64,000 nt of DNA. It comes from an uncultured archaeon. GTDB lineage: Archaea > Thermoproteota > Nitrososphaeria > Nitrososphaerales > Gagatemarchaeaceae. The position numbers and the translations under genes were made by a program. Positions 9,427-17,603 of the stretch are shown in pieces. The stretch spans positions 384,001-448,000 of the forward strand of contig CAWFOU010000007.1 in NCBI GenBank assembly GCA_963817525.1, written 5' to 3'. Within the stretch, counting starts at the first letter, position 1. Every line of letters begins with the position of its first letter. The notes below the pieces were generated by a model. That model did not search any database. It was not told the origin of the DNA and saw only the letters and a program-made list of their open reading frames with translations.

Positions 9427-9514
9427 TGGTGCGGGCGGTGGGATTCGAACCCACGAACCCCTAAGGGATTGGAGCCTCAGTCCAACGCCGTTGGCCATAC
9501 TGGGCGACGCCCGC
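9427..9514 (-). tRNA. tRNA-Leu(GAG), CCA encoded
   Basis: GCGGGCG acceptor, TTGGA-CTGAGGC-TCCAA anticodon arm, long variable arm, GTTCGAATCC T-loop, ACCA end. Confidence 0.96.
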
Positions 9515-16763: not shown

Positions 16764-16797
16764 TTGGGGCTTATATCCCAGAAGTAGCTTGTGGTGC

Positions 16798-17436
16798 ATG
16801 TCTGGTCCTTCCAAATCTGAAAGAACCTCAGAATTTATAGGCGCCATTCTTGGAGACGGAAACATCTACGACAGACGCCCTTACTATGTCGAGATGTGCG
16901 GCAACCCTATCAACGACCTTGACTATTACAAGCAAGTCCTGCTACCTATCGTGAGTAACGAGCTCGGAAAGAATCCAAGGCTCTATCTGAGGGATGGAGG
17001 ATTGCGTTTCAGGATTAACCAGAAGTCATTTGTAAAATGGCTAAAGGAGATAGGTCTGCCAGCGGGTGAAGCTAAGGGATCTGCTACAATCCCCAATTTC
17101 ATAGCTTCGAGCAGAAAGCTCCTCGCTCGCTGTATTAGGGGACTCTACGACACCGATGGCAGCGTGTATTTTGACAGGCGACATGCCTACCTCAAGCCGT
17201 ATCCCCGAACCGAACTGCAGATGACTAACGAAGCTCTATTGGAGCAGGTGGACCGAGTTCTAGACCAAATGGAAATCAGGCATTCCCTTGTAAGGCGTAG
17301 GGCGTCCTTGTCCTTGGAAACTGCCGGCGTCGAGTCGCTTGGCCGTTACTTGCAAACCATTGGATTTTCCAATCCATATCACCTTGGCAGGATAAGAGCC
17401 GAGTATCCAGAATTAGTCAGGCTCAATTGCGCCTGA
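16798..17436 (+). CDS. Free-standing double-motif LAGLIDADG homing endonuclease
   Basis: Motifs FIGAILGDGN and IRGLYDTDGS, both with acidic residues; own TATA-like CTTATAT at ~16770; no intein splicing blocks. Confidence 0.85.
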   Translation: MSGPSKSERTSEFIGAILGDGNIYDRRPYYVEMCGNPINDLDYYKQVLLPIVSNELGKNPRLYLRDGGLRFRINQKSFVKWLKEIGLPAGEAKGSATIPNFIASSRKLLARCIRGLYDTDGSVYFDRRHAYLKPYPRTELQMTNEALLEQVDRVLDQMEIRHSLVRRRASLSLETAGVESLGRYLQTIGFSNPYHLGRIRAEYPELVRLNCA

Positions 17437-17510
17437 CCCGGAATCGATTTGCCGAATGCTCAGTAATGATTTCAGTCTTTAAAAGTGTCAACTAAATGAG
17501 GTCGGGCTGT

Positions 17511-17603
17511 GCCGACGTAGCTCAGCCTGGCAGAGCGAACCACTATCGTGGGCTCAAGTCTCTCGTAAGGACTAGGCCGAGGGCTCAAATCCCTCCGTCG
17601 GCT
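17511..17603 (+). tRNA. tRNA-Thr(CGT) with a 19-nt non-canonical intron at 27/28 (17539-17557)
   Basis: GCCGACG/CGTCGGC acceptor; BHB-like GAGC-GAA-CCAC(TATC)GTGG-GCTC-AAG; splicing gives AGTCT-CTCGTAA-GGACT arm; TTTAAAA upstream. Confidence 0.88.

Follow-up and report, generated by a model that had tools for sequence, protein, structure and literature searches.

Free-standing LAGLIDADG genes docked on archaeal tRNA genes, with a candidate homing cassette at tRNA-Thr(CGT) of an uncultured member of the Nitrososphaeria

Introduction

Homing endonuclease genes that stand free and spread without an intron are known from phages. One of them, segB of phage T4, lies among tRNA genes, and its enzyme is reported to recognize the T-psi-C motif and to drive the inheritance of itself and of neighbouring tRNA markers (Brok-Volchanskaya et al., 2008; PMC2330249). 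Here we describe a free-standing LAGLIDADG endonuclease gene beside tRNA-Thr(CGT) in a 64,000-nt stretch from an uncultured archaeon of the Gagatemarchaeaceae (assembly GCA_963817525.1, contig CAWFOU010000007.1, positions 384,001 to 448,000 of the forward strand); this whole stretch is called the window, and the genome that it comes from G000. Both are free-standing endonuclease genes at tRNA genes, but SegB is a GIY-YIG phage enzyme that acts in mixed infections, whereas the G000 protein is a LAGLIDADG enzyme of putative cleavage activity encoded on an archaeal chromosome. Further, unlike SegB, the archaeal genes form clades with one tRNA each and are accompanied by partial tRNA duplications.

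An archaeal locus of comparable layout has been reported at tRNA-Thr(GGU) of Caldiarchaeum subterraneum, where a 5′ piece of tRNA-Thr is followed by 1,868 bp of inserted DNA containing an 813-bp open reading frame (ORF), and then by an intact tRNA, whose first 27 positions and a new intron belong to the insertion (Sugahara et al., 2012; PMC3293823). In that description, the ORF of about 270 amino acids has a predicted DNA-binding or recombination function, the composition is foreign, the element has a further copy next to tRNA-Thr(CGU), and the arrangement was explained by integrase-mediated site-specific recombination of a pNOB8-like plasmid (Sugahara et al., 2012). Judged from this published description of the ORF, the C. 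subterraneum locus matches the layout found in G000; the words LAGLIDADG and homing have no occurrence in Sugahara et al. (2012).

Collaborative homing in phages offers a further comparison. The cyanophage psbA case is reportedly an instance of it. A published example is phage mobE together with the I-TevIII intron (PMC2790892). Such systems resemble G000 in having a free-standing endonuclease gene beside a gene whose intron has no working endonuclease, and in that the intron could confer immunity and be mobilized in trans; however, their introns are self-splicing group I introns, whereas the intron in G000 is 19 nt long, presumably protein-spliced and widespread without the endonuclease.

The closest enzymes in structure, I-Tsp061I and I-DmoI, are like the G000 protein archaeal, tied to stable-RNA genes, and built as a single-chain two-domain fold with one acidic residue per motif. 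By contrast, both are encoded inside rRNA introns of the bulge-helix-bulge (BHB) type, whereas the G000 gene is free-standing beside a tRNA with a non-coding 19-nt intron, and sequence identity to them is 16–20%.

Our search of the open-access literature returned no paper on LAGLIDADG genes that stand free next to tRNA genes in archaea. The origin of the non-canonical introns, split genes and orphan halves of archaeal tRNA genes has been a standing question since their discovery, and the published model for the disruption of these genes relies on integrases of plasmids or viruses. Should tRNA genes be the target of small LAGLIDADG cassettes that bring in replacement parts, sometimes including an intron, a single protein and a handful of DNA substrates would be enough to test this question directly. 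If true, the free-standing LAGLIDADG enzymes would also gain a large class that spans phyla and has natural, highly conserved targets. The docking of endonuclease relatives on tRNA genes across many archaea may help explain how these genes come to be interrupted and fragmented.

A family of LAGLIDADG genes docked on tRNA genes

A metagenome scan returned 317 relatives of the endonuclease, of which the best 80 were kept, and tRNA adjacency was surveyed at 100 loci that are not independent and include some near-duplicates (labels starting with G denote genomes and those starting with L locus stretches). The tRNAs at these loci were located with a custom T-arm/acceptor finder and with ARAGORN, and some multi-intron tRNAs were mislabelled. 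An adjacent tRNA in some position was present at 88 of the 100 loci. At 61 of them a same-strand tRNA starts −10 to +100 nt after the match, at three a convergent tRNA lies within 100 nt, and at five a tRNA ends no more than 160 nt upstream. A tRNA located 400–620 nt upstream of the match was found at 32 loci; since the proteins there have an N-terminal extension of about 100–125 amino acids, the true upstream gap is near 100 nt. Overall, tRNA density was 1.03 per kb within 650 nt of the match versus 0.11 per kb farther out. The preliminary description of this locus had named enrichment of homologues beside tRNAs as a check, and this enrichment is strong; tRNA adjacency holds as a property of the whole family and is broader than was first noted.

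Twelve loci had no tRNA call, and these include L043, where the gene lies between tRNA halves, L072, with a tRNA 123 nt away, and three partial matches. L028 also had no call at first, and a multi-intron tRNA-Thr(CGT) was found later only 3 nt away. Three stretches (L051, L082, and L090) end at contig ends, with L051 still showing the 5′ part of tRNA-Thr(CGT).

The endonuclease lineage belongs to the Nitrososphaerota, and distant relatives occur in Aenigmatarchaeota, Micrarchaeota, Pace-, Woese- and Nanoarchaeota, and in one bacterium of the Candidate Phyla Radiation (CPR). All 19 loci with at least 41% identity (G000, L025–L029, and L045–L057) are at tRNA-Thr, 18 of them at tRNA-Thr(CGT) and one at tRNA-Thr(TGT), and the members of this clade adjoin the tRNA on either side and in either orientation; for example, the gene is convergent on the 3′ side of tRNA-Thr in G010, L045, and L046. 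Reading the table of loci, other sub-groups likewise pair with one tRNA each, namely Gln-TTG, Val-GAC, Thr-TGT, Ser, and for others Tyr or His. A large group at 27–31% identity sits 10–19 nt ahead of tRNA-Gln(TTG), and in L092 the reading frame extends 15 nt into the tRNA.

The same tendency is seen within the genome of the window, in which 31 matches to the Pfam family LAGLIDADG_3 (PF14528) were found, nine of them in small frames of 169–280 amino acids. Eight of these nine frames abut a tRNA with gaps of 0–110 nt, and about 1% of the genome lies as close to one of the 51 tRNA calls. Besides the gene in the window, seven frames (C7:848k, C7:269k, C7:814k, C7:1045k, C1:676k, C1:83k, and C1:706k) are of other sub-families and in all orientations, and one of them overlaps its tRNA. 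With the custom finder, the tRNAs at these seven frames are Ser, a 117-nt tRNA of unclear anticodon, a 150-nt tRNA, Ala/Ile, Val, an initiator-like tRNA, and Pro. Judged by sequence and position, the G000 gene genuinely belongs to a clade specific to tRNA-Thr(CGT), which is part of a large family of LAGLIDADG genes that stand free and are docked on tRNA genes, and it lies at a locus that appears to carry scars of insertion into those tRNA genes.

Two further observations concern the extent of the family. Most of the PF14528 matches in G000 lie inside open frames of 400–1800 amino acids, which suggests many intein-borne endonuclease domains. In the metagenome-assembled genome of the CPR bacterium (Magasanikbacteria; L040), the relative, at 29% identity, lies 31 nt before tRNA-Ser(CGA).

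The endonuclease and its gene

The gene occupies positions 16798..17436 (+) of the window and is free-standing. The ORF listing gives 16789..17436 (+) from a TTG start, corresponding to 215 amino acids, and the ATG at 16798 gives 212 amino acids plus stop. The translation contains two LAGLIDADG motifs, GAILGDG and GLYDTDG, whose aspartates D20 and D120 end the helices at residues 8–20 and 106–120. PF14528 covers residues 110–189 with an E-value of 4.6e-7, above the cut-off, and a weak WhiA-like Pfam match remains below it. A sequence search of the PDB gave no match at E-values up to 1, and NCBIfam gave only sub-threshold, partial matches to intein-bearing proteins.

An AlphaFold (AF2) model built from 20 homologues has a pLDDT of 94.9 and a pTM of 0.91, and shows the duplicated alpha-beta-beta-alpha-beta-beta-alpha fold. 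With Foldseek, the best solved fold is I-Tsp061I (2dch; TM 0.73–0.75, E 4e-12), followed by I-DmoI at a TM of about 0.6–0.7, while the bI3 maturase and WhiA rank lower. D120 is invariant in 20 close homologues and the GDG of the first motif is kept in all 17 that span it; the other three begin downstream of this motif. Between G000 and its orthologue in G018, dN/dS is 0.12. Taken together, the modelled protein has the full two-domain fold and retains both catalytic aspartates, and its coding sequence is under purifying selection.

Composition sets the gene apart from its surroundings, with a GC content of 0.48–0.52 across the ORF versus 0.62–0.69 in the flanks. GC at third codon positions (GC3) is 0.54, compared with 0.90 and 0.93 in the two neighbouring genes, and the pattern recurs across three hosts (0.49–0.63 in the endonuclease, 0.81–0.93 in the genes next to it). 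A TATA-like element, TTATAT, was read from the sequence at 16771..16776 (+), 22 nt before the ATG, a spacing that fits a leaderless endonuclease transcript. The description made from the sequence alone was right in every detail of the locus that could be checked, including the two-motif gene of about 212 amino acids with its acidic residues intact, its own TATA-like element, and its higher AT content relative to its neighbours.

An insertion at a conserved locus

Loci were compared using the downstream helix-turn-helix (HTH) gene as the synteny anchor. In the congeners G022 and G006, the same NHL-repeat gene, tRNA-Thr(CGT), and HTH gene are present and the endonuclease is missing; the spacer between the NHL stop codon and the tRNA is 53 nt there versus 747 nt in G000. 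This 747-nt stretch carries the LAGLIDADG ORF alone and no recombinase gene. Relative to congeners with the same flanking genes, the comparison shows the endonuclease gene as an AT-richer insertion of about 700 bp. The insertion includes the 74-nt spacer between the endonuclease stop codon and the tRNA (17437..17510, +), whose length had been stated correctly beforehand and in which TTTAAAA at 17478–17484, about 30 nt before tRNA position 1, is the putative new tRNA promoter. The spacer before the tRNA is common to the endonuclease-bearing G000, G018, and L051, and differs from the 53-nt spacer of the endonuclease-less G022, G006, G020, and G019, which suggests that the cassette brought its own tRNA promoter. 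A match to the C/D-box snoRNA model SNORD47 at 17435–17503 (23 bits against a cut-off of 50, E 0.31) was taken as probable chance.

Close orthologues of the endonuclease were found in two of 22 congeners, G018 (76% identity) and G010 (59%), and in none of 24 further genomes of the family or order at an E-value of 1e-20 or better. G000 itself has a single copy of the Thr(CGT)-clade gene. The gene is thus patchily present among close relatives at an otherwise conserved locus, as is looked for in LAGLIDADG homing endonucleases.

The locus is present in four DNA sequencing runs from soil, all of one study, and there is no RNA run among those listed as containing it. In one of them, X4, a single low-depth contig combines a tRNA having three changes in the intron loop with upstream sequence of the endonuclease-less type, and most likely comes from a co-occurring relative.

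tRNA-Thr(CGT) and its intron at 27/28

The tRNA gene next to the endonuclease matches Rfam RF00005 at 17511–17603 with a score of 42.1 bits, and 34 nt stand in place of 15 in the model, an excess of 19 nt. ARAGORN anticodon calls are unreliable for intron-bearing tRNAs, as Asp, Lys, Pro, or '???' were given for Thr(CGT) genes, and its call of Asp(atc) for this tRNA was rejected; the anticodon loop, read by hand, is CTCGTAA, i.e., Thr(CGT). In a pattern scan this gene is the sole match to tRNA-Thr(CGT) in G000. Our hand parse places the 5′ exon (tRNA positions 1–27) at 17511..17538 (+), the intron at 17539..17557 (+), and the 3′ exon (positions 28–73) at 17558..17603 (+).

Within the intron, GCTC (17552–17555) would pair with GAGC of the D stem (17533–17536) to form a 4-bp helix flanked by the 3-nt bulges GAA and AAG, together with an inner hairpin, CCAC/GTGG. 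If each bulge is cut behind its second base, the intron falls at 27/28, and removal of 17539–17557 leaves a 5-bp anticodon stem with a 7-nt loop. The identical cutting rule gives perfect anticodon stems in the divergent alleles L003, L027, and L047, in which base 27 co-varies with base 43. The intron is kept in at least 12 distinct alleles, and its inner helix co-varies (CCAC/GTGG versus CCC/GGG). A full BHB would also have an outer exon-exon helix, of which there is hardly any here, so that the motif counts as relaxed. By these features the 19-nt insert can be assigned to the archaeal BHB tRNA introns in their relaxed form, and both the Rfam match and the hand parse bear out the earlier call of a tRNA-Thr(CGT) with a 19-nt BHB intron at 27/28.

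Does this intron travel with the endonuclease? A pattern scan for tRNA-Thr(CGT) in 151 genomes of the order gave matches in 67. Among the 20 matching genomes of the family, the 27/28 intron is present in 10, one of which is G000, and absent from the other 10; in genus g20, eight genomes have it versus seven without, and G007, of the window's own genus, is also without. Over the stretch compared, the intron-less alleles of G098 and G060 are identical to what splicing would yield from intron-bearing ones. All 18 tRNA-Thr(CGT) genes beside clade members have an insert after the D stem. The intron also occurs without a clade endonuclease in 14 genomes, namely G022, G006, G020, and G019 at the syntenic locus, nine more of the family, and G040. 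Both the commonness of the intron without the endonuclease and its constant presence beside clade members fit a homing cycle with frequent loss of the endonuclease, and they fit equally well an intron that is old and an endonuclease that came later.

In the wider family, 56 distinct downstream tRNAs were compared, a length of no more than 78 nt being taken as without intron; 23 are of this class, 10 are of 79–90 nt, and 23 are longer. With 23 of 56 downstream tRNAs lacking one, an intron is not the general partner of the family. L029, at 41% identity, abuts an intron-less tRNA-Thr(TGT). In addition, 33 of the 51 tRNA calls in G000 are longer than 90 nt, and an intron beside the endonuclease gene is weak evidence in a tRNA set that is mostly of intron length.

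Other inserts were seen in this tRNA. In G019, the syntenic tRNA-Thr(CGT) (L018, ~1355–1470) has a second insert in the T loop besides the 27/28 intron, and was missed by both Rfam and ARAGORN. In L028 (3125–3277; Aenigmatarchaeota), where the endonuclease is 46% identical, the insert after the D stem is of a type GGCTGA...GCC that is also present in Nitrososphaerota families without the endonuclease (G025, G033, G037, and G142); this likeness hints that the tRNA or its intron may have moved between phyla.

Orphan tRNA pieces and decayed copies

Partial tRNA copies accompany several of the endonuclease genes. Upstream of the gene in L050 is a 26-nt copy of tRNA positions 1–26 (E 2e-8) followed by a decayed intron, and in L047 and L048 there are copies of positions 1–13 followed by decayed D-arm or intron sequence. 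In L048 the orphan continues after position 13 with CTTGGGGCTCAAA, and L051 has the intron remnant TCGTGGCGCT at the corresponding place. In L050, L048, and L047 the upstream orphan consists of the 5′ exon plus an intron remnant and ends where the 3′ exon would begin. The succession of intron remnant, T/A-rich box, and endonuclease ORF is common to G018, L051, L048, and L050. In the window, directly after the stop codon of the NHL-repeat gene, TTGGGGCT (16764..16771, +) resembles GTGGGCTC of the intron; it is eight bases only, and might at most be a weakly indicated remnant of the 3′ half of an orphan intron copy, at the position just before the T/A-rich box where L048, L050, and L051 keep longer remnants.

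Orphans are not confined to the 5′ side or to tRNA-Thr. L098 (Gln) has both 5′ and 3′ orphan copies, and L009 and L010 have a 5′ piece of tRNA-Leu. In G010 and G018, with a gene on the 3′ side, an orphan 3′ end of tRNA-Thr lies beyond that gene. In G018 it is the orphan whose T arm and acceptor strand are those of the G000-type allele; the functional tRNA of G018 has different, foreign ones. In both G018 and G010 the orphan and functional copies differ in sequence. Decayed copies were also found, such as L004 with three TGA stops and L007, which is split, as expected for selfish genes.

The 3′ side of tRNA-Thr(CGT) in G018 is occupied by a second, unrelated two-motif LAGLIDADG gene of 331 amino acids (L002, 2274–3266, minus strand), which is convergent with the tRNA, so that the tRNA there is flanked by two endonuclease genes; the orphan T arm and acceptor strand, identical to the G000-type allele, is at ~3352–3377 of L002. 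A tblastn search with this second endonuclease found no remnant of it in the ~900-nt insert of G020 (L021).

A stringent search for endonuclease genes inside tRNAs returned the orphan arrangements of G018 and G010 only, with L043 as the single candidate. In this uncultured archaeon, a LAGLIDADG ORF (2501–3130 of L043) lies between the 5′ end (2440) and the T arm and 3′ end (3256) of a class-II-like tRNA. No intact copy of the tRNA is nearby, and 7-bp and 6-bp long-range helices join the two sides in the minimum-free-energy fold (z −4.8). L043 may be a tRNA intron that encodes its own endonuclease.

A homing cassette and its alternatives

We hypothesize, with good support from the comparison of loci and a probability of roughly 0.6, that the ORF, which looks active, is a mobile, selfish, free-standing LAGLIDADG homing-endonuclease cassette that uses the tRNA-Thr(CGT) gene as its landing site. 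The mobile unit would be small, comprising its own promoter, the endonuclease gene, and a replacement promoter and front part of the tRNA. The enzyme would cut tRNA-Thr(CGT) loci that lack the cassette, and the break would be repaired from the endonuclease-bearing copy, with tRNA sequence, including the orphan piece, providing the homology arms, such that the gene and the adjoining part of the tRNA are copied in together. A conserved tRNA would offer a target in many species, and docking beside rather than inside it would leave the tRNA functional. The resident tRNA might escape cutting through the intron at 27/28 or through base changes. In the alleles compared, the cassette comes with a different tRNA promoter, and in G018 the tRNA has a foreign acceptor stem and T arm while the resident-type 3′ end is orphaned; these features might reflect co-conversion of flanking markers, as in intronless homing of the Seg/Mob type.

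Several results weigh against a selfish cassette. Among the contigs of the four soil runs, which are of low depth, none skips the endonuclease gene, and presence/absence polymorphism within a population was not seen. At 76% identity and with the same arrangement, the G000 and G018 copies may have been vertically inherited for long, whereas a purely selfish gene is expected to decay. The search of viral contigs gave no relative of the endonuclease, and hence no transfer vector is known. Moreover, the orphan remnant in G000 is just 8 nt, and the functional tRNA beside the endonuclease gene is intact, leaving self-immunity unexplained.

The preliminary description had favoured collaborative homing, in which the enzyme would recognize intron-less tRNA-Thr(CGT) at its uninterrupted exon junction, immunity would come from the 19-nt intron that splits this site at 27/28, and repair would copy in the intron and, less often, the endonuclease gene. 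Part of this idea stands. The endonuclease gene adjoins, at 74 nt, a gene whose intron codes for no endonuclease; the Thr clade was never seen without an insert between the D stem and the anticodon stem (18 of 18); and intron-less alleles occur in the same family (10 of 20 matching genomes) and the same genus (G007), those of G098 and G060 equalling the spliced form in the stretch compared. The orphan, with its 5′ exon up to about position 26/27 and an intron remnant ending at the 3′ exon boundary, also fits, and so does the inserted DNA of C. subterraneum, which reaches tRNA position 27 and introduces a new intron (Sugahara et al., 2012; PMC3293823). In this layout, transfer through the nearest homology arm would involve only the intron, in keeping with an intron far commoner than the endonuclease. 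However, endonuclease-less relatives with the same intron, which had been named beforehand as a refuting result, exist in 14 genomes, although loss of the endonuclease in a homing cycle would look alike. The intron-less downstream tRNAs of the wider family (23 of 56), the intron-less tRNA-Thr(TGT) at L029, and the 33 long tRNA calls among the 51 of G000, which make an adjacent intron weak evidence, also count against it, and we regard this mechanism as possible but doubtful.

The strong purifying selection (dN/dS 0.12), the stable arrangement in G000, G018, and L051, and the lower-ranked resemblance in fold to the bI3 maturase and WhiA, together with the sub-cut-off WhiA-like Pfam match, would be expected if the protein had been domesticated as a DNA- or RNA-binding factor for the neighbouring tRNA, acting in its transcription or helping relaxed-BHB splicing in the manner of maturases or WhiA. 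Such a role is improbable for a gene that is present in three of 23 genomes of the genus and in none of 24 further relatives despite the same tRNA and often the same intron, that keeps both catalytic aspartates and a foreign codon composition, and whose family includes orphan tRNA pieces and decayed copies. Alternatively, in line with the explanation given by Sugahara et al. (2012), site-specific recombination may have brought a plasmid or virus into the tRNA and left behind fragments and an intron, with the LAGLIDADG gene as a passenger. Genes for tRNAs are known integration sites, partial tRNA duplications resemble att sites, and the similarly laid out C. subterraneum locus has been read in this way (PMC3293823). 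Yet the 747-nt insertion is one gene without a recombinase, this minimal unit turns up repeatedly across lineages and beside many different tRNAs, the orphan and functional copies of G018 and G010 differ where att repeats should be identical, and the viral contigs held no relatives; we consider an integrase scar marginally less probable still than domestication.

Beyond the single locus, tRNA-docked LAGLIDADG cassettes might be an engine of tRNA gene disruption in archaea, a broader proposal that we put forward as speculative and, from the loci compared here, rather unlikely. The cut would fall near the junction of D arm and anticodon stem, the cassette would enter with a spare promoter, a 5′ exon, and a shielding mini-intron, and the old 5′ part of the tRNA would stay behind as a fragment. 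With the nearest homology arm located within the cassette, spread of the mini-intron would be far more frequent than that of the endonuclease gene. If true, this would account for the patchy occurrence of non-canonical introns within genera, for orphan tRNA halves, and for tRNA sets as rich in introns as that of G000, with 33 of 51 calls above 90 nt and eight docked LAGLIDADG genes.

Other features of the region

A tRNA-Leu(GAG) gene lies at 9427–9514 (−) of the window, 7 kb from the locus. In G010, L027, L046, L047, and L048, tRNA-Leu(GAG) is located within ~150–320 nt of the endonuclease gene or of tRNA-Thr. In addition, a LAGLIDADG ORF in a 247-amino-acid frame is found within the 23S rRNA gene of a congener (L008, from G021), the classical setting of an rRNA intron.

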